From positions 1,340 to 65,339 of the IMG/VR virus record IMGVR_UViG_3300033163_000002: a DNA stretch of 64,000 nt. One strand, 5' to 3'. Positions 14,420 to 55,229 of the stretch are shown in pieces. Origin of the DNA: a virus. Taxonomy: Duplodnaviria > Caudoviricetes. The position numbers were made by a program, and so were the translations under genes. The notes beneath the pieces were generated by a model. That model was given only the letters and a program-made list of their open reading frames with translations. It was not told the DNA's origin and did not search any database. The stretch's first letter is position 1. Each line of letters opens with the position of its first letter.

Positions 14420-15520
14420 TTACACCAATCCGGACGCCATGTGAGTGAGGCCGCATTTCCCATTCTGATCAGAGCGGATCTGCGGAACCTGGATTGTCAA
14501 CACCTTGTATTTGGTGATGAAATTGCCTTCAGTGCCCCACTGGACATTCTGCAATCCCATTCCCCGAACCATCCGAACCACATCGCTCGTCATCTGGACG
14601 AAGATGATGTTGTCGGCCGGCAAGGTATCCACAACTTTGATATCAGAAATGCCACCAATTTTCAGGATCCGATCCCGGATAGTCTGGGTGGATTGGCCGC
14701 TGGTGTCATAATCCTCATCCAAAACAGTTTCATATGCGGTCGGGATATAAATTACCCACGGCCCATAATGAAGATTGTTGATGCTGGTCTGTTTCAGACT
14801 GATCACATCCGCCAAGATTTCGGCAGGGGTTTTGGTGGCATCATTCCAAGCCTTGGTCAGATTGACCTTATTCCGGTTGGGATAATTCACATAACTGTAA
14901 ACCGTGCCCCCACCAAATGAATAATTTTCATTGGTGAAAAGCATGTTTTCCAGTTTTTCAGATACCTTGCGGGCAGCCCTTTCAGCCAATGTGGTATCAA
15001 TGGGATTCCCCAGATTCCGGCTGGAAGCCAAAACCCTTGCGTTAATCTCATAATCCACATGAACGATCGGGATGGGCAGGTAGGTGGTTGACCAGACCGG
15101 GCGATCCCCCTGACCCCGGGTTACCGCATCCATGCTCAATTCTGCCTTCAGCGCATCCCCTACATCATGGCTTTCCAGAAGCGTGGTTCCCATCGCATTC
15201 CCCAGATTGTAGGTCAGCCCCCTGCTGATCAGATCAGCGACGCCATTCAATCGGGTTTCTGCGATTCCCAAAACTGCTTCATCCAGTGTTTTCCATTCAT
15301 CCCGGCGAAGGGTTCCACTGGTATTTACCAGCTGGGTCACATAGGATTTCGGATCCTTCGCATCCCCACCCTTAAACACGGTGATGTAGGTTCTTCCATC
15401 TTTCCCGATATATGGGCGAAGGGATCCGGGATCCATCCGACCGTTTACGGCAAACAGGTTGGCCACCTCCCCTTGAGTCTGACCATTTCCTACAAAATCA
15501 ATATTCACATTTTCAGCCAT
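14420..15520 (-). CDS. Major capsid protein (HK97 fold, encapsulin-like family)
   Basis: ~366 aa; LRRDEWKTLD.AV..A..RL.GV.DL..RGL, P.P..H.DY.I..R.L motifs; follows scaffold and decoration genes; AAAGGAGG SD before ATG 15520. Confidence 0.85.
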   Translation of the reverse strand: MAENVNIDFVGNGQTQGEVANLFAVNGRMDPGSLRPYIGKDGRTYITVFKGGDAKDPKSYVTQLVNTSGTLRRDEWKTLDEAVLGIAETRLNGVADLISRGLTYNLGNAMGTTLLESHDVGDALKAELSMDAVTRGQGDRPVWSTTYLPIPIVHVDYEINARVLASSRNLGNPIDTTLAERAARKVSEKLENMLFTNENYSFGGGTVYSYVNYPNRNKVNLTKAWNDATKTPAEILADVISLKQTSINNLHYGPWVIYIPTAYETVLDEDYDTSGQSTQTIRDRILKIGGISDIKVVDTLPADNIIFVQMTSDVVRMVRGMGLQNVQWGTEGNFITKYKVLTIQVPQIRSDQNGKCGLTHMASGLV

Positions 15521-22814: not shown

Positions 22815-22846
22815 TTTGGTTTTTTAAAAGAATGGGCGTATATTTG
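22815..22846 (+). promoter_or_regulatory. Bacteroidota-type housekeeping promoter (-33 TTTG, -7 TAnnTTTG)
   Basis: TTTG at 22815-18, 20-nt spacer, TATATTTG at 22839-46; lies in the divergent intergenic gap. Confidence 0.7.
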
Positions 22847-22859
22847 AATCATTGAATGA

Positions 22860-23251: not shown

Positions 23252-23318
23252 CGGCGCTGCTGAGATTGGATTCCAGACAGTGAAGAACCTGGCGGTGGTT
23301 CGATTCCACCCAGTGCCG
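23252..23318 (+). ncRNA. tRNA-like element lacking a canonical D stem and anticodon arm
   Basis: (C)GGCGCTG/CAGTGCC(G) acceptor-like stem; perfect T arm GGTGG-TTCGATT-CCACC; CCAG/CTGG stem with a 12-nt loop. Confidence 0.55.
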
Positions 23319-23355
23319 CTAAATCCTAAATGTAAACCAAAAATCCTTTTCAATC

Positions 23356-23532
23356 ATGACAAATGACGCAAAAATGAACAGGCTTCGCAAAGCCGCCAAA
23401 ATGAGCACCGAAGATTTGGTGGTTGGCTTGAAAGCAATGGGAATCATCAAAGATGGCGAATCCCTGCTTTCCTACTTCAAAAAAGATCGGGACGAATTGA
23501 TCCTGATGTGGGCCACAAAGAAAAAAATGTAA
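23356..23532 (+). CDS. Small early hypothetical protein (58 aa)
   Basis: MTNDAKMNRL..KKKM; leader tgtaaaccaaaaatccttttcaat shared with the next gene. Confidence 0.65.
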   Translation: MTNDAKMNRLRKAAKMSTEDLVVGLKAMGIIKDGESLLSYFKKDRDELILMWATKKKM

Positions 23533-23553
23533 ACCAAAAAATCCTTTTCAATT

Positions 23554-23712
23554 ATGAAAGCAATCAAATTTGACGAAAAATTTATCAAAGACGTAGCGAA
23601 AGATCAGGGTATTACCAATCTTTCCACCCAGCAATGCCGGAAAGCCCATAACGCTTGCAAACATGCCGGAGAAGATTATTACTACCGGTTGAAAGAATAT
23701 TTTTATGCATAA
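23554..23712 (+). CDS. Small early hypothetical protein (52 aa)
   Basis: MKAIKFDEKF..EYFYA; ends 5 nt before hammerhead 1. Confidence 0.65.
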   Translation: MKAIKFDEKFIKDVAKDQGITNLSTQQCRKAHNACKHAGEDYYYRLKEYFYA

Positions 23713-23717
23713 ACAAA

Positions 23718-23771
23718 GCACTCTGATGAGGCTTCATGAGCCGAAACCCGGGATTGATCCCGGGTCAGTGT
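23718..23771 (+). ncRNA. Type I hammerhead ribozyme 1 (predicted cleavage after GUC at 23766)
   Basis: GCACT-CTGATGA-GGCT tcatg AGCC-GAAA-CCCGGGA ttga TCCCGGG-TC-AGTGT. Confidence 0.9.
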
Positions 23772-23793
23772 TAAACCCTTAAAACTTATTCCA

Positions 23794-24174
23794 ATGAAAA
23801 CCCATCAAACCACAAGAATCGTAGATGTTTCCCATTTGACAAAAATGGCCACGCAAACAACTCTGAATCTGCTGAATTCCATCAGGCCAGTTCTTTCTGA
23901 TCAATATGGAAAATTTCAATGGACCGCCTCCCATATCACCGATATGACGAAGATTCTGGTATACAAGGAATATCTGGATGTTCTGGACACCTTCAAGCGG
24001 ATCTGGATGGAGCAATATTCGCATATCGGGGGGTATCCTGATGAAGCCCGGATCCGGAAAAACGTAGAATTCTACAAGGGATTGCGCACCTGCCCCTTTG
24101 GATTTGAAATCTTTATGGCCGCCCATTCCATTGCTTCCCACATGTTGGAAGAGGGGGTTGAAGTTCAGGAATAA
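23794..24174 (+). CDS. Early hypothetical protein (126 aa)
   Basis: ORF flanked by hammerheads 1 and 2. Confidence 0.75.
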   Translation: MKTHQTTRIVDVSHLTKMATQTTLNLLNSIRPVLSDQYGKFQWTASHITDMTKILVYKEYLDVLDTFKRIWMEQYSHIGGYPDEARIRKNVEFYKGLRTCPFGFEIFMAAHSIASHMLEEGVEVQE

Positions 24175-24176
24175 CA

Positions 24177-24234
24177 AACACTCTGATGAGGATTCATGAT
24201 CCGAAATCCGGGGGATCATCCCCGGATCAGTGTT
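24177..24234 (+). ncRNA. Type I hammerhead ribozyme 2 (predicted cleavage after AUC at 24228)
   Basis: AACACT-CTGATGA-GGAT tcatg ATCC-GAAA-TCCGGGG gatcat CCCCGGA-TC-AGTGTT. Confidence 0.9.
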
Positions 24235-24255
24235 AAACCCTTAAAACTTATTCCA

Positions 24256-24522
24256 ATGAAAACTGTATCAGATCTTTTTAAATTGATCATCAAAGAAACC
24301 GCAATGAATGAAGGGAAAACCTGCAAATTTGTTTTCAGTATCAATACCCAGCATGGATGGGTTTCCATGTACCGGGAAGTAGATATTGAAGGGGAAAAGC
24401 CAGCAGAACTCTTCGCTCTGAAATCCATCAAAACCCCGGCCGAAGTTCAGGAAGTTTACTGGATGATCTGGAATCATGGCCGTTCCCGTAATTTGGATCT
24501 GGATGTTAACAAGGCATTCTGA
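24256..24522 (+). CDS. Early hypothetical protein (88 aa)
   Basis: Start refined to MKTVSDL; TGA stop lies in the core of hammerhead 3. Confidence 0.75.
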   Translation: MKTVSDLFKLIIKETAMNEGKTCKFVFSINTQHGWVSMYREVDIEGEKPAELFALKSIKTPAEVQEVYWMIWNHGRSRNLDLDVNKAF

Positions 24523-24570
24523 TGAGGCTTCAATAGCCGAAATCCGGGGAATCATCCCCGGATCAGTGTC
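24513..24570 (+). ncRNA. Type I hammerhead ribozyme 3 (predicted cleavage after AUC at 24564)
   Basis: GGCATT-CTGATGA-GGCT tcaat AGCC-GAAA-TCCGGGGA atca TCCCCGGA-TC-AGTGTC. Confidence 0.9.
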
Positions 24571-24592
24571 AATCTTAAAACCCCCAGAAATC

Positions 24593-24805
24593 ATGACAAC
24601 TTCCCTAAACATTGAAAAATTAACCAAAAAAGAAAAACAACAATTATTTGCTGTTCAAGTGTTCATAAAAAAGACCATGGATAGTGGTGATAATGAGCAC
24701 AAATTAAAAATGGATGAAGAATCCATCCTAAAAGTGTGGAATGATGAAAATACTTTTCCATGGTATATGCATTTAGGAACAGGAAAGCAAATAAAAACAC
24801 TCTGA
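24593..24805 (+). CDS. Early hypothetical protein (70 aa)
   Basis: Start refined to MTTSLNI; TGA stop lies in the core of hammerhead 4. Confidence 0.72.
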   Translation: MTTSLNIEKLTKKEKQQLFAVQVFIKKTMDSGDNEHKLKMDEESILKVWNDENTFPWYMHLGTGKQIKTL

Positions 24806-24853
24806 TGAGGATTCATGATCCGAAATCCGGGGGATCATCCCCGGATCAGTGTT
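24796..24853 (+). ncRNA. Type I hammerhead ribozyme 4 (predicted cleavage after AUC at 24847)
   Basis: Same sequence as hammerhead 2 over the ribozyme. Confidence 0.9.
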
Positions 24854-24876
24854 AAACCTTAAAAACCCCAGAAATC

Positions 24877-25095
24877 ATGACAGACGAAGAAAGGGAAGAA
24901 AGATCCCAAAAAATAGAAATGCTTTTTGAAGCGTTGGAATTGGTTCAACAAGCCCAGCAACTGGTAGATGATGCCCTTTCCGGAAGCAAACATGAATCCC
25001 ATTACAAAGCCTACGGGCGATATGGATTTGATCAATTGCTGGGCAATGGAAATCCCTACGATTATGATCTGGAAAAATTGTTGGAAGAATTCTAA
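24877..25095 (+). CDS. Early hypothetical protein (72 aa)
   Basis: Acidic helical ORF 29 nt after the hammerhead 4 cut site. Confidence 0.75.
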   Translation: MTDEEREERSQKIEMLFEALELVQQAQQLVDDALSGSKHESHYKAYGRYGFDQLLGNGNPYDYDLEKLLEEF

Positions 25096-25115
25096 AACCC
25101 CCAAAACTCCGAAAA

Positions 25116-25643
25116 ATGGAAAGAACAAAATTTAGCACACTTGATCAACTCAAAGATCAGATTACCAAAGAAATGCACAAGGATTATTTTTTCAATGGGG
25201 AGGTCTTCAATCCCCTGAATGAAGGATGGTGGTTCCAATTCGACAATGGCACCCGCCGAATGGGACAGTGCAGCATTCATTTGAAGCGGATTTCATTATC
25301 CAGAAAGATGTGTGAATTGAATATGAATCGATGGGATTTGATTGAAGATATTCTGTTGCATGAATTAGCCCACGCCTTCACCGAAAAGATCTACGGAAAG
25401 GAATCCTCTGGACACACCCCCCAATTCAGGCGAATCGCCAAATCAATGGGGTCCTCCCTTTTGGGGTCCATGATTCCTAAATCATTTGGATTGCGGGTCC
25501 CATATCGATATAAATATCGTTGTCCCGGGTGTGGAGGCACGTGGGAGCGGCAAAAGAAAATTGAAGGATCTTGTAGAGCCTGTTCCGGATCTAATATTTA
25601 TGATCCAAAATTCAAATTAGTTCTGGTTGATGAGGCACTCTGA
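25116..25643 (+). CDS. SprT-like zinc metalloprotease
   Basis: RRMGQC, LLHELAH, GHTPQF, C-terminal CPGC..CRAC; TGA stop in the core of hammerhead 5. Confidence 0.85.
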   Translation: MERTKFSTLDQLKDQITKEMHKDYFFNGEVFNPLNEGWWFQFDNGTRRMGQCSIHLKRISLSRKMCELNMNRWDLIEDILLHELAHAFTEKIYGKESSGHTPQFRRIAKSMGSSLLGSMIPKSFGLRVPYRYKYRCPGCGGTWERQKKIEGSCRACSGSNIYDPKFKLVLVDEAL

Positions 25644-25690
25644 TGAGACCTGATTGGTCGAAATCCGGGATCTGATCCCGGATCAGTGTC
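25634..25690 (+). ncRNA. Type I hammerhead ribozyme 5 (predicted cleavage after AUC at 25684)
   Basis: GGCACT-CTGATGA-GACC tgatt GGTC-GAAA-TCCGGGA tctga TCCCGGA-TC-AGTGTC. Confidence 0.9.
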
Positions 25691-25713
25691 AAACCTTAAA
25701 AACATTATCAATC

Positions 25714-25977
25714 ATGACAAAAATTACAATCCCAACAAACATGCCGCCAGAACAGATCCCGGCATATGTAAAGAATCAGATCCGGGGCATGGAAATGCGC
25801 AGAATGGCAAAAAATTCAGACGCCCCCATTCCCGAACCCAAATCAAAAAAAATCAAGGTGATTCCCGGTGATGACTGGACCACCAACACCAAAGGAATGA
25901 GCGGAAAGCAATTGAAAAGGGTGATCCAGATGTCCAAAGATTATGAATATCGGCGGACTAAATTCCCAAAAAAATAA
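25714..25977 (+). CDS. Early hypothetical basic protein (87 aa)
   Basis: Start refined to MTKITIP, 29 nt after the hammerhead 5 cut site. Confidence 0.7.
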   Translation: MTKITIPTNMPPEQIPAYVKNQIRGMEMRRMAKNSDAPIPEPKSKKIKVIPGDDWTTNTKGMSGKQLKRVIQMSKDYEYRRTKFPKK

Positions 25978-26010
25978 CCTAAAAACCGCAATTTTAACTA
26001 AAAACGGGAC

Positions 26011-26116
26011 TTCGCAAATAAGGCACAAAAGAGGGCCATAGACGAATTTACACCCTGTTTTGATATCCTTATACCGCCCCGCAACCGATCGTCGATTTTG
26101 GTATATATCGTGGCTT
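26011..26116. repeat. ~106-bp intergenic element, inverted copy of 55884-55989
   Basis: ttcgcaaataaggcacaaaagagggccatagacgaatttacaccc..ccgatcgtcgattttggtatatatcgtggctt aligns ungapped with the reverse complement of 55884-55989. Confidence 0.85.
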
Positions 26117-26209
26117 TGCGGGGCATACATATTCAAATAATTTAATTAAACAATACTTCATAAATCAGGGCATAAACCAGAATATGGGCTGCCCATAAAT
26201 CAAAAAAAA

Positions 26210-28249
26210 ATGGAAACAAAAATGTATCGGATCGGACCATTGTTTGCCCGGAAAAATTCACTTCCGGTCGCCTTCGTCGCAAACAAATTGATTGAAAGCC
26301 CCCGCGCTGTTTACCTCAATGGACATGGCACTCTGGAAACTCAAAAAATGGGATTCTGTTGCATCTGTGGGAGGGAATTGACCCACCCGGTGTCTGTTGT
26401 TCTGGGAATCGGACCCCATTGCGGAGACCATTGGTGGAATTGGGATGCCATTGGTGGATTCAATGAAAATGTGTTGGAAGAATTAAAAATCCGGATTCAG
26501 GGAGTCAAAGTTGATCAGTGGATCCCGAAATCCGTCATCAAAGAAATATACGAAACAACAGAAATCATCACCACTCCTGAAAATCATCCTATGTTGAAAA
26601 AAGAAAATAAACCCAAGCAGGCTCCCGCCAGAAAGGCCACCCCGGTCAAATATCAGAATTCCGGGAAATGGGCTATTAAAATTGAATTTCCTTTCAATCA
26701 TGATGATCTGGGAAGGGTCAAAACCCTACCCGATCGTCGCTTTCACAATGAAGGAACAGAAAAATACTGGACCGCCCCCCTTTCCATTGAAGCTGTTGAA
26801 AAACTGCAAGAATGGGGGTTTCAGATGGATGATCGCTTGATCCGATATCTGGAAAAAACCAAAGTCAATGTGAAGGATGTTTCTGATGATATCCAGATCC
26901 CCGGATTGAAGGGGAATCTTTTTCCTTTCCAGAAAAAGGGTGTTGCCTTTCTGGAAGCAAAGGACGGGCGCGCCCTGATCGCCGATGAAATGGGATTGGG
27001 AAAGACCGTTCAGGCTTTGGCATATCTTCAATTGCATCAGGAAAAGCGCCCAGTAATCATTGTGGTCCCTGCTTCCCTGAAACTCAATTGGAAGAAAGAA
27101 GCCCGCCTGTGGATGGAAAACCCAAATGTCCAGATCCTTTCCGGAACCAATGCCAACATCCCCATCATCGGGGAAATCCTGATCATCAATTATGATATCC
27201 TTCCCCAATGGGTTGGCCGATTGATCCAGATCAAAGCGCAGATCCTGATCACCGATGAATGCCACTATTACAAGAATAATTCTGCGAACCGGACCAAGGC
27301 TGTTAAGAAATTGGGGAAATCCATCCCCCATGTTATAGCCCTTTCCGGAACCCCGATTGTTAATCGGCCTGTGGAAATCTTCAATGCTCTTTCCCTGATT
27401 GATTCCACTGTGATGCCCAGTTTCTGGAAATTTGCCCATAAATATTGTGGCGCCCGCCATAATGGATTCGGATGGGATTTCAATGGGGCTACCAATACCG
27501 ATGAATTGCATACCATCCTTTCCAACACCCTGATGATCCGCCGGAAAAAGGCAGATGTGTTGAAAGATCTTCCCGACAAAATCAGATCATTCATTCCGAT
27601 TGAGTTGAATAATGAAAAGGAATACCGCAAGGCGGAATCTGATTTCATTGCCTATCTGCGGGAGCAGAAAGGAATGACTGCCGCTGATCGGGCTTCCAAT
27701 GCCCAAGCCCTTGCCGAAATTGAAGGATTGAAGCAATTGGCGGTTGCCGGAAAAATGAAACAGGTCGTTGAATGGATCCGGGATTTCATGGAAAGTGATG
27801 AAAAATTGGTCATATTCGCCACCCATAAATTCGTGATCGATGCCCTGATGAAAGAATTCAGCGGGATGGCCGTCAAAGTGGATGGATCTGTTTCCGGGGA
27901 AAACCGCCATCAGGCCGTTGAATTATTCCAGAATGATCCAAATGTCAGGATCTTTGTGGGGAATATCAAAGCCGCCGGGGTGGGTCTTACCCTGACTGCC
28001 GCATCAAATGTATTGTTTCTGGAACTCCCGTGGACTCCGGGGGATCTGACCCAGGCGGAGGATAGGTGCCACCGGATCGGACAAAAGGAATCTGTGACAA
28101 TTCATTATCTGCTTGCCGCCGGAACCATTGAAGAAAAAATTGCTTCCCTGATTGATCGGAAGCGTCGGATTTTGGATTCTGTTCTGGATGGAACCATCAC
28201 CGATCAGGAATCACTACTTTCTGAATTGATCAAAGATTTAACCCAATAA
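26210..28249 (+). CDS. SNF2-family helicase with N-terminal DUF6011-like Zn finger and HARP-like domain
   Basis: CCICGRELTHPVS..GIGPHCG; IEFPF..DL..VK.L..RRF..KYW; ADEMGLGKT, DECH, LSGTP, AAGVGLTL, QAEDRCHRIGQ. Confidence 0.9.
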   Translation: METKMYRIGPLFARKNSLPVAFVANKLIESPRAVYLNGHGTLETQKMGFCCICGRELTHPVSVVLGIGPHCGDHWWNWDAIGGFNENVLEELKIRIQGVKVDQWIPKSVIKEIYETTEIITTPENHPMLKKENKPKQAPARKATPVKYQNSGKWAIKIEFPFNHDDLGRVKTLPDRRFHNEGTEKYWTAPLSIEAVEKLQEWGFQMDDRLIRYLEKTKVNVKDVSDDIQIPGLKGNLFPFQKKGVAFLEAKDGRALIADEMGLGKTVQALAYLQLHQEKRPVIIVVPASLKLNWKKEARLWMENPNVQILSGTNANIPIIGEILIINYDILPQWVGRLIQIKAQILITDECHYYKNNSANRTKAVKKLGKSIPHVIALSGTPIVNRPVEIFNALSLIDSTVMPSFWKFAHKYCGARHNGFGWDFNGATNTDELHTILSNTLMIRRKKADVLKDLPDKIRSFIPIELNNEKEYRKAESDFIAYLREQKGMTAADRASNAQALAEIEGLKQLAVAGKMKQVVEWIRDFMESDEKLVIFATHKFVIDALMKEFSGMAVKVDGSVSGENRHQAVELFQNDPNVRIFVGNIKAAGVGLTLTAASNVLFLELPWTPGDLTQAEDRCHRIGQKESVTIHYLLAAGTIEEKIASLIDRKRRILDSVLDGTITDQESLLSELIKDLTQ

Positions 28250-28271
28250 AAACCCCAAAAACCCCTATACA

Positions 28272-28847
28272 ATGGAAAATATAAATTTCATAAAAAGCGT
28301 AGCATGGTCCTTTCATCAAACCACCGGGATCCAAATGGATGAATTGTTTTCAGAAGCCACATTGGCCTATGTGGAAGCCTGCCAAAGCCATGATCCTCAA
28401 AAAAGCAAATTAACCACATGGGCATATCATCATATGCGATCCAGATTGATCAAATTTTGTAAACAAGAAAAGCGCTATAAATTGATATTGGATTCCTGTC
28501 CGGATATAGTCCAATATGAAAGACAAAATCTATATGAAAGCGGATCCATGTCAAAGATTGGAAAAGGGGAAGCGGATCAATTCATTGATCAGATCCATGA
28601 ATTGCTTTTCAGTCCCTTTGTTGATCCTTTTGATTTCCCCTTGCAGGATATTCTAAAACAGCTCCCAGAACAGGGCAGGGAGCTCGTTAAATTGATTTTA
28701 GAATCCCCAGAAGATTATCCCATTGATAAACCAAAAAAGGCCCGTGGAATGGTCGTTAAGATGCTCAGGGCACATGGTTGGTCATGGGGAATGATCTGGG
28801 ATCAGATCCGGATCCTGAAAACCATCCTGAATGAATCCCAGATTTAG
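28272..28847 (+). CDS. Phage sigma70-like factor
   Basis: Region 2-like DEL.SEA.LAY.EA..S.DP.KSK.TTWAY..MR..L; C-terminal helix pair. Confidence 0.7.
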   Translation: MENINFIKSVAWSFHQTTGIQMDELFSEATLAYVEACQSHDPQKSKLTTWAYHHMRSRLIKFCKQEKRYKLILDSCPDIVQYERQNLYESGSMSKIGKGEADQFIDQIHELLFSPFVDPFDFPLQDILKQLPEQGRELVKLILESPEDYPIDKPKKARGMVVKMLRAHGWSWGMIWDQIRILKTILNESQI

Positions 28848-44900: not shown

Positions 44901-44938
44901 TTAGGAAAGGATTTTTTTAATTTAAAACCCCCAAAAAC

Positions 44939-51067: not shown

Positions 51068-51312
51068 AGACAGCTACAGAAATTAACCAACACCTACGGC
51101 AATGTAGAAAAGGTAGGATGAAACTATTAACCCAACATAATGATTTAAATCAAATTGATATGCAGAGCGGGGGAGGTTACGGGCTTCAAAAAAAGATTGC
51201 TAATTATGAAGGGCAGATTGATGCATTGAACTGGGTATTATCCGGTCGTGGGGCAAATAAATTTCCAGATTTACCGGATGACTGTAATGCAACAGAATCA
51301 GATATTTATTAA
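51064..51312 (+). CDS. Hypothetical protein
   Basis: 82 aa; ATGA overlap with recA. Confidence 0.6.
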   Translation: MKTATEINQHLRQCRKGRMKLLTQHNDLNQIDMQSGGGYGLQKKIANYEGQIDALNWVLSGRGANKFPDLPDDCNATESDIY

Positions 51313-51333
51313 CCATATAAACAACGATAAGTT

Positions 51334-51534
51334 ATGGAAACTCTTTTGATAATTGCAGCCGCTCTGTTATATCTTTTCATAGGAAGGGTGGTTGCTCAGA
51401 TATATGTACAATGGCATTTTGATCCTTATGGTCACCGGACTGATATGGTTTTGTGGACGTTTACATGGCCATTGGTTTTAGTGTGGTGGGCATTTGATGT
51501 CTTTGTTAATTGGATTGATAATAAATTCTTTTAA
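51334..51534 (+). CDS. Small membrane protein
   Basis: Two hydrophobic segments. Confidence 0.55.
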   Translation: METLLIIAAALLYLFIGRVVAQIYVQWHFDPYGHRTDMVLWTFTWPLVLVWWAFDVFVNWIDNKFF

Positions 51535-54880: not shown

Positions 54881-54992
54881 AGCCCCGTGCCTTTGGGTGG
54901 GGGGAATATATGATTTTGCAATTATCGCCGGCGTGGGCGAGCGAGAATCAGCCTACAGCCGCTTTTTATGATCAACTTTAAATCTGAACATC

Positions 54993-55229
54993 ATGGATGA
55001 AACAAGATTATTTGAATTGAAACAGGAAATTGACGAAGCAAAAGAAGAAGTCGGGGAATTGAAAGGGAAGAAAAAACTTTTGCTGGAGCAATTGAAAGAA
55101 CAATGGGGATGTGCTTCCATTGATCAGGCTGCGAAAAAAATGGAAGAGTTTTCCAAGCAGATCCAAAAGTTGGAGACATCCATTGAAACCGGATTGAAAG
55201 AATTGGAGGAAAAATATGCAGACGAGTAA
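54993..55229 (+). CDS. Small coiled-coil protein
   Basis: 78-aa heptad pattern between the nuclease and the Rad50 C-terminal half. Confidence 0.65.
   Translation: MDETRLFELKQEIDEAKEEVGELKGKKKLLLEQLKEQWGCASIDQAAKKMEEFSKQIQKLETSIETGLKELEEKYADE

Follow-up and report, generated by a model that had tools for sequence, protein, structure and literature searches.

We report an array of five type-I hammerhead ribozymes in an uncultured tailed phage (Duplodnaviria; Caudoviricetes) of ~65 kb and propose, as the likely reading of its layout, that these ribozymes chop an early transcript into mRNAs of one or two genes each, with every ribozyme adjoining the smallest stand-alone zone on which a ribosome can load. 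The array lies on the + strand within 2 kb (positions 23717-25690) of a stretch of 64,000 nucleotides (nt), hereafter the window, which comprises bases 1340-65339 of the 65,339-bp IMG/VR virus record IMGVR_UViG_3300033163_000002 (estimated to be 92% complete) and covers most of the genome; its identity as a phage is based on that record, a terminase small subunit and a helicase. Successive ribozymes flank one, one, one and two open reading frames (ORFs). The motif, its covariation, its spacing to the downstream genes and the mosaicism of the repeats are all observed directly in the DNA.

In each of the five copies, the core CUGAUGA ... GAAA ... UC is followed by the predicted cut, which was placed directly after C17, that is, at the base following GUC or AUC. 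The residues expected of a type-I core (C3 U4 G5 A6 N7 G8 A9, G12 A13 A14, the pair A15.1-U16.1 and H17, which is not G) are all present, and, judged by their sequence against the criteria of Perreault et al. (2011; PMC3088659), the five motifs are genuine type-I hammerheads. The core-adjacent pairs 10.1-11.1, 1.1-2.1 and 15.1-16.1 are G-C, U-A and A-U in all five, and the G-C and A-U pairs are invariant among 73 distinct sequences of the wider family described below. The topology is that of type I, with stem I (6 bp) open and stems II and III closed by loops, stem II consisting of 4 bp and a 5-nt loop. A covariance model built from the window copies and one relative assigns 79.1 bits to hammerhead 1 (23717..23772, predicted cut before A23767), 85.6 bits to hammerhead 2 (24177..24234, A24229), 81.5 bits to hammerhead 3 (24513..24570, A24565), 85.6 bits to hammerhead 4 (24796..24853, A24848) and 75.9 bits to hammerhead 5 (25634..25690, A25685). 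At 76-86 bits (E about 1e-17 to 1e-19), these five copies are the only ones found, the next best match in the 64 kb scoring 14 bits.

The fold is supported further by thermodynamic prediction and by covariation. The three-way junction is the minimum-free-energy fold for four of the five hammerheads, and position 6 of stem I covaries within the window itself, being A-U in hammerheads 1, 2 and 4 and G-C in hammerheads 3 and 5. When 81 family members were aligned to the model, 99.3% of cells were paired and 15 of the 17 pairs showed compensatory changes, as against 29-39% pairing in controls with the partners slid by 1-3 columns, although an alignment fitted to the model is biased towards the structure. 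A model-based alignment was used because MAFFT misaligned hammerheads of differing stem lengths.

The cuts stand at nearly the same distance from the genes that follow them, as a first-pass annotation of the window, made from the sequence and its ORFs, had pointed out. The next ATGs of real ORFs lie at 23794, 24256, 24593, 24877 and 25714, giving leaders of 27, 27, 28, 29 and 29 nt (23767..23793, 24229..24255, 24565..24592, 24848..24876 and 25685..25713), and all five begin with AGUGU(U/C)AA. The 3′ strand of stem I makes up the opening six bases of each, with the covarying pair accounting for the U/C at position 6, while the remaining 21-23 nt contain at most one G and no GGAGG-like or otherwise Shine-Dalgarno-like motif, in agreement with the A/C-rich segment devoid of such a site that the annotation had described. 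Because leaders 1 and 2 are identical (27/27) and leaders 3 and 4 match at 25 of 29 positions, the five distances are not independent and amount to about three independent leaders. Similar sequence precedes genes in this phage where there is no ribozyme: 20-22-nt, G-poor, A/C-rich spacers resembling the leader remainders occupy the ribozyme-free junctions at 23532 to 23554, 25095 to 25116, 28249 to 28272, 51312 to 51334 and 54971 to 54993, the second of which (a leader-like spacer of 20 nt at 25096..25115, + strand, between the two ORFs of the fourth cassette) served as comparator. On its sequence, then, each leader is the stem I strand (6 nt) joined to the usual stand-alone initiation spacer of the phage (~21 nt). 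An A/C-rich motif, UAAAACCCCCA(A/G)AA, also recurs before five genes, both with and without a ribozyme (24571-24592, 24855-24876, 25096-25115, 28250-28271 and about 44915-44938), and may be a phage-specific translation enhancer.

The same spacing recurs among related ribozymes. Viral, metagenome and genome collections were scanned with patterns and the matches passed through a structure-checking scanner, which yielded 114 distinct type-I hammerheads, including 103 clean cases with a downstream ORF. In the latter, the cut-to-ATG distance has a median of 27 nt and an interquartile range (IQR) of 25-29 nt, with 68% of cases within 23-29 nt and 91% within 19-35 nt; the 90 unique leaders from outside the window, taken from phage and metagenome contigs, likewise have a median of 27 nt and lie within 19-35 nt in 90% of cases. 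The exceptions to the 19-35-nt range, ~9% of family leaders, comprise two leaders shorter than 19 nt and seven of 48-116 nt. The standardised leaders of the first-pass annotation are thus matched across the family, though their cause appears to be the ordinary one given above, namely stem I plus the usual spacer. Apart from A at positions 7-8 after the cut (86-87%) and the near absence of G, family leaders are highly diverse in sequence, and those members that do carry Shine-Dalgarno-like motifs keep a similar distance (27-33 nt). An exact-pattern scan of viral contigs with the stem III of the window matched no other record.

Counted back from the ATG, adenine in family leaders peaks at -3 (0.68), at -6/-7 (0.56/0.64) and from -11 to -13 (0.69-0.79). 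In Flavobacterium johnsoniae, initiation is promoted by A-3, A-6, A-12 and A-13, ribosomes ignore Shine-Dalgarno sequences, and RNA structure is reduced from about -20 to +20 around the start (PMC6847099). As far as sequence can tell, the family peaks match these published determinants of initiation in Bacteroidia as well as the open zone. The host of the phage is probably a member of Bacteroidota, as suggested by the promoter type, the Shine-Dalgarno-poor leaders, a family member (L148) on a Weeksellaceae contig from a metagenome-assembled genome (MAG), and a Pontibacter relative of the helicase, the only match, and a distant one (30% identity), obtained when helicase relatives were sought in bacterial genomes. 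The initiation regions of the window are likewise predicted to be open, with unfolding costs of 0.9-5.1 kcal/mol after the cut and 2.9-6.8 kcal/mol before it, compared with 11.6 +/- 3.8 kcal/mol for random windows.

From these observations we infer the host as well as cleavage in vivo and what it does to the stability and translation of the mRNAs; the mechanism that we propose is as follows. Each ribozyme would fold during transcription and cut after C17, splitting the transcript into a 5′ fragment, cassettes of 462, 336, 283 and 837 nt, and a remainder. Hammerhead cleavage leaves the downstream product with a 5′-OH and the upstream product ending at C17 with a 2′,3′-cyclic phosphate, and, by established RNase biology, such ends should protect the products from 5′-monophosphate-dependent and 3′-exonucleolytic decay. 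Each downstream piece would accordingly start with a 5′-OH on AGUGUY, which, once the 6-bp stem I has melted, would form the head of a G-poor, unstructured leader lacking a Shine-Dalgarno motif. Each upstream piece would end in the ribozyme body, a very stable stem III hairpin whose one-base overhang carries the cyclic phosphate, and such an end should block 3′ exonucleases. The strong 3′ hairpin attributed to each unit by the first-pass annotation is borne out by predicted stem III energies of -12.9 to -15.7 kcal/mol, which fall in the top 5% of 102 family members (median -8.9 kcal/mol), and it is plausible that the cassette transcripts are stabilised by their predicted 5′-OH and 3′ hairpin ends. 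Of the four excised units that were then envisaged, the ends are as described, but the unit between hammerheads 4 and 5 carries two ORFs (of 72 aa and a 175-aa SprT-like protein) rather than one.

Cleavage would also explain why the leaders are complete. Since it abolishes translational coupling, the gene downstream of each cut needs a full stand-alone initiation region, which in these phages would be an open zone of ~20 nt with adenines at fixed positions. A compact genome would push the ribozyme against the edge of this region, and 6 nt of stem I plus a spacer of 21-23 nt then gives the near-constant 27-29 nt. The repeated module of ribozyme plus leader, ~85 nt long, could in addition serve as a homologous recombination substrate through which small genes are shuffled. 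In the two ribozyme-free helicase relatives checked (L006 and L009), small early genes are spaced by -20 to +4 nt, which implies, on the evidence of gene order, that they are translationally coupled; the ribozyme-separated and the coupled layouts look like alternative solutions within one phage group. In these relatives, the small early genes of L006 4500-6000 and L009 2100-4400 overlap or sit 1-4 nt apart.

Several observations weigh against this proposal. By prediction, cleavage would unmask the initiation region by only 0-2 kcal/mol, so local folding alone provides no strong reason for cutting; unmasking as the main reason was rejected on this ground. Three of the five ribozymes carry within their core the stop codon of the preceding gene, so that folding could face competition from ribosomes translating that gene. 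The spacing statistics come from patterns that fix part of stem I, and the family sample is thus not an unbiased census. The Bacteroidota host is assigned on inferred signs only (promoter type, leaders, L148 and the 30%-identical Pontibacter helicase), and AAAGGAGG motifs precede two late genes of the phage. Finally, the best-related curated model, RAGATH-1-hammerhead (RF03152), scores the window copies at 23-26 bits, below its cut-off of 56.3; at gathering thresholds, Rfam gave no match in the window or in eight related loci, and for RF00163 no match in the window was listed. The motifs share the catalytic core, the three-helix junction and the order of elements with both the RAGATH-1 (RF03152) and the type-I (RF00163) hammerheads, and they differ from the RAGATH-1 model in stem II, which is a single pair there and 4 bp with a 5-nt loop here. 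The failure at gathering cut-offs is a limit of the curated models and not of the ribozyme class. As to the late genes, the AAAGGAGG motifs are strong and stand ~6 nt before the ATGs of 366-aa and 148-aa genes on the minus strand (ending at 15520 and 15983), which is odd if host ribosomes ignore Shine-Dalgarno sequences.

A rival explanation of the spacing is that the ribozyme-made 5′ end is itself required for translation, the cut at about -27 freeing an unstructured 5′-OH end for ribosome loading, so that the register would be functional and not only a matter of packing. The tight spacing across the family despite unrelated leader sequences speaks for this explanation, and the fact that family leaders with Shine-Dalgarno-like motifs nevertheless keep 27-33 nt points the same way. 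There is also a precedent in linear RNA viruses: type-I hammerheads with a long helix III, located just upstream of ORFs, including intergenic ones, set the 5′ end by cleavage, and self-cleavage, indispensable to translation initiation in a fungal chrysovirus, is enough to bring it about in plants (Lopez-Galiano et al. 2026; PMC13725137). Those systems, however, concern eukaryotic RNA viruses with cap-independent translation and distances such as 7 nt, whereas here we deal with a DNA phage, bacterial ribosomes and an array known from its sequence. Bacterial ribosomes, moreover, initiate internally as a rule; the ribozyme-free junctions of the same phage use the same spacer internally, where there is no free 5′ end; cleavage is predicted to alter accessibility little; and the ~9% of leaders outside 19-35 nt include the 48-nt leader before the helicase of the relative L019. 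We consider it unlikely, though worth keeping in view, that the new 5′ end is needed in this way. The same tentative standing applies to its generalisation, in which type-I hammerheads of tailed phages would obey a positional rule, the cut falling ~27 nt (IQR 25-29) before the start and making the exact 5′ end of a minimal initiation region free of Shine-Dalgarno sequence, with translation dependent on the cut. Chopping of the early transcript into small mRNAs, with the register set by stem I and the usual spacer, remains our preferred reading.

The repeats might instead matter mainly as DNA, the ~85-nt modules of ribozyme plus leader acting as recombination sites for small early genes and cleavage being secondary. 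That recombination of some kind has taken place is supported by the sequences: the bodies of hammerheads 2 and 4 are identical (52/52), and the leader of hammerhead 2 equals that of hammerhead 1 even though their bodies agree at only 42 of 52 positions, while the leader of hammerhead 4 is closest to that of hammerhead 3. The gene content of related arrays varies as well. The array of L143, a 2.9-kb MAG contig (1-2857) with five hammerheads, the last of them truncated at the contig end, is denser than that of any other relative, and its leaders measure 26, 28, 29 and 28 nt. The sole genes that it has in common with the window, an SprT-like gene (43% identity) and an 87-aa gene (51%), stand in reversed order. 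A peptide-pattern search had found no relatives of the SprT-like protein in viral contigs, and it was tblastn that found the one in L143. L061 (three hammerheads) and L019 (four) have only the helicase in common with the window and none of its cassette genes. In L019 the ribozymes flank the helicase itself (leaders of 27, 27, 48 and 24 nt), and the flanks fetched for ten other helicase relatives contained no hammerhead. The identity of the flanked genes thus varies among relatives.

The first-pass annotation had suggested that repeat-flanked units recombine in and out, and had proposed to compare the genes between ribozymes in related phages, an identical gene order counting against it; order proves not to be identical, being reversed in L143, with L019 and L061 sharing no cassette gene with the window, and the discordant bodies and leaders lend the suggestion support at the DNA level. 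Mosaic repeats and permuted gene content, compared here among relatives that are not near-identical, fit recombination between the repeats, and these sequence patterns speak for a shuffling of cassettes in the DNA. A precedent exists in the PeSL elements of T4-type phages (PMC2839356, PMC4122927), which are likewise a repeated intergenic regulatory module between small variable early genes and are associated with gene shuffling. PeSL, however, combines an early promoter with a stem-loop terminator, whereas the present module combines a ribozyme with a translation leader and contains no promoter-like site within the repeats; the array resembles PeSL in effect and is not a member of that class. 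As the main function of the repeats, recombination appears doubtful: that selection acts on the RNA fold, and not just on DNA identity, is shown by the perfect core and by compensatory changes in the stems, alternating stem I sequences in many arrays reduce homology between neighbours, and recombination may be a by-product of the repeats. We rate it somewhat below a requirement for the ribozyme-made 5′ end, and return to transcript cutting as the likely role.

The alternation just mentioned was seen in other arrays of the family (L022, L153, L154, L159, L188, L193 and L194), where neighbouring hammerheads switch between two stem I versions, AGUAUC and UGUAUC, with matching partners, the two differing at the cut-adjacent pair. 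It could prevent mis-pairing between the halves of neighbouring ribozymes or lower DNA recombination.

We see little prospect for a further idea, also raised in the first-pass annotation, that the cassettes become circular mRNAs, their 5′-OH and 2′,3′-cyclic-phosphate ends being joined by a host RtcB ligase or by the reverse hammerhead reaction. By established knowledge, the end chemistry fits RtcB, which is present in Bacteroides thetaiotaomicron, one of our control genomes; and every cassette in the window, as in the close relatives L019, L143 and L061, has a 5′ end able to form 5-6 bp with the stem I strand that lies at the 3′ end of the same cassette. Such pairing makes docking possible, yet joining the ends would restore the whole hammerhead, which, with a stem III of -13 to -16 kcal/mol, should cut again. 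Searches of the phage for RtcB, Rnl2-type and 2′-5′ RNA ligases detected none, although a host RtcB is conceivable; a search for T4 Rnl1 (PF09511) was uninformative, since control genomes gave no match either. Across the family, 14 of 38 two-ribozyme cassettes have ends with only 0-3 contiguous pairs, which, together with the frequent alternation of stem I, indicates that end compatibility is not a conserved trait. Viroid-like RNAs, retrozymes and satellite circular RNAs, which also release hammerhead-flanked units with ligatable 5′-OH and 2′,3′-cyclic-phosphate ends, are tandem or unit-length repeats, and their circles persist because the native fold works against the hammerhead, which is of type III or of type I with a weak helix III. 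The units here, in contrast, are different protein genes rather than unit-length repeats, and helix III is unusually stable, which places the array outside that group. Circular or spliced products of comparable arrays were sought by Perreault et al. (2011; PMC3088659), and none were detected. Last, that the motifs are decayed or inactive hammerhead-like repeats devoid of RNA function, as their scores below the Rfam gathering thresholds might suggest, is hardly credible given a core intact in all five copies, 99% pairing with compensatory changes, and a family conserved across many phages.

Prophage clusters of hammerheads that flank a single gene or a short gene block were reported in 2011 and cut in vitro (PMC3088659), and this in-vitro cleavage of comparable prophage arrays speaks for our proposal. 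In both cases several coding-strand hammerheads stand close together and the flanked genes vary between relatives, and the authors of that study likewise proposed that a long phage transcript is processed into gene-length mRNAs, while also considering circular or spliced products. Here, by contrast, all five ribozymes are type I, the phage is a probable Bacteroidota phage, and the motifs are missed by the curated Rfam thresholds. Distances in the earlier account are those of individual cases (13 nt for the hammerhead of the haloviruses HF1/HF2), and the passages used here state neither a register of ~27 nt nor a match to initiation free of Shine-Dalgarno sequences. The array adds nothing categorically new and is a clean example of a known arrangement.

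A comparison with synthetic parts is also instructive. RiboJ-type insulators, which Lou et al. in 2012 are said to have engineered from a satellite-RNA hammerhead, reportedly have a hairpin added before the Shine-Dalgarno site. There, as here, a hammerhead in the 5′ untranslated region removes the upstream RNA, so that the downstream gene always starts with the same short leader; the present modules differ in being natural, in lacking a Shine-Dalgarno motif and in leaving an unstructured leader, and they could serve as compact natural insulator parts for synthetic biology in Bacteroidota.

The new elements are the composition of the leader (stem I plus a standard initiation spacer), the ~27-nt register of the family with its match to Bacteroidia initiation signals, a sequence-based argument against circles, and the evidence for cassette shuffling. 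Most hammerheads of bacteria and phages still lack an agreed biological role (reviewed in PMC6765202), and the spacing, with a median of 27 nt over ~90 independent phage hammerheads, turns the vague idea of polycistronic RNA processing into a measurable rule. Should translation indeed depend on the cut, orphan phage hammerheads would acquire a general function and the ribozyme-enabled translation of RNA viruses a bacterial counterpart. In addition, curated Rfam thresholds miss what is an abundant group of phage hammerheads.

The genomic setting agrees with an early role. Large structural genes and the terminase small subunit occupy the minus strand up to ~22,700, and a long block of plus-strand genes begins near 23,300, in which the array is followed by an SNF2 helicase gene (26210-28249, +); judged by this layout, the array looks like the head of a single early transcript, with small ORFs first and the helicase after them. 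A candidate promoter of Bacteroidota type, TTTG-N20-TATATTTG (22815..22846, +), was found by pattern match in the divergent intergenic region; the pattern occurs twice in the window, which is not above chance, and its position is its sole support. No terminator-like site was found on the + strand between this candidate and 26200, and the array-bearing transcript probably starts near 22850 at the candidate promoter and runs rightward as a single RNA. In the ORF list, two small ORFs of 58 and 52 aa (23356..23712, +), the second of which is preceded by a ribozyme-free 21-nt spacer, precede the array and would remain on the 5′ fragment of hammerhead 1; the TAA stop of the ORF upstream of hammerhead 1 ends 4 nt before its stem I.

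The cassette ORFs, all on the + strand, are small. Cassette 1 encodes 126 aa (23794..24174); cassette 2 encodes 88 aa (24256..24522), its TGA stop coinciding with U4-G5-A6 of the hammerhead 3 core; and cassette 3 encodes 70 aa (24593..24805), with its TGA stop within the core of hammerhead 4. The first ORF of cassette 4 encodes 72 aa (24877..25095), and the second encodes a 175-aa SprT-like metalloprotease with a HELAH motif (25116..25643; PF10263, E 9.7e-13), whose TGA stop lies within the core of hammerhead 5. The ORF after hammerhead 5 encodes 87 aa (25714..25977), and its 51%-identical homologue in L143 lies upstream of the SprT-like gene. The proteins of 126, 88, 70, 72 and 87 aa matched no Pfam or PHROG family.

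Some minor observations concern the RNA elements of the region. The AA at leader positions 7-8 was examined as a possible contact between stem I and loop II, of the kind on which fast cleavage in vivo depends, and no consistent tertiary-contact partner was found for the five copies of the window. Loop II of hammerhead 4 (UCAUG) finds its complement, CAUGA, at the downstream start codon (24802-24885), and that of hammerhead 5 (UGAUU) in AAUCA at -7 to -3 (25640-25722). Family-wide, loop II and the leader are complementary in 13 of 65 cases, compared with an expectation of 7.9 (P about 0.03), mostly as UUAAU with AUUAA. Such complementarity may reflect a pseudoknot or chance; a pseudoknot between loop II and the start codon was not adopted, since it fits only hammerheads 4 and 5 in the window and is weak across the family. 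Upstream of the array, 23294-23387 shows a weak Rfam match to the tRNA-like part of beta-tmRNA (13.5 bits, E 0.49), where the ~450-nt non-coding stretch that heads the early transcript ends, and the cut of hammerhead 1 would leave this RNA and the two small ORFs on one 5′ fragment. Downstream of it, a 232-nt gap (25978-26209) separates the last cassette from the helicase gene; the window scan found no hammerhead inside this gap, which holds a 9-bp G+C-rich inverted repeat with arms at 26076-26084 and 26116-26124. In L019, the corresponding position before the helicase is taken by a hammerhead whose 48-nt leader contains a hairpin.

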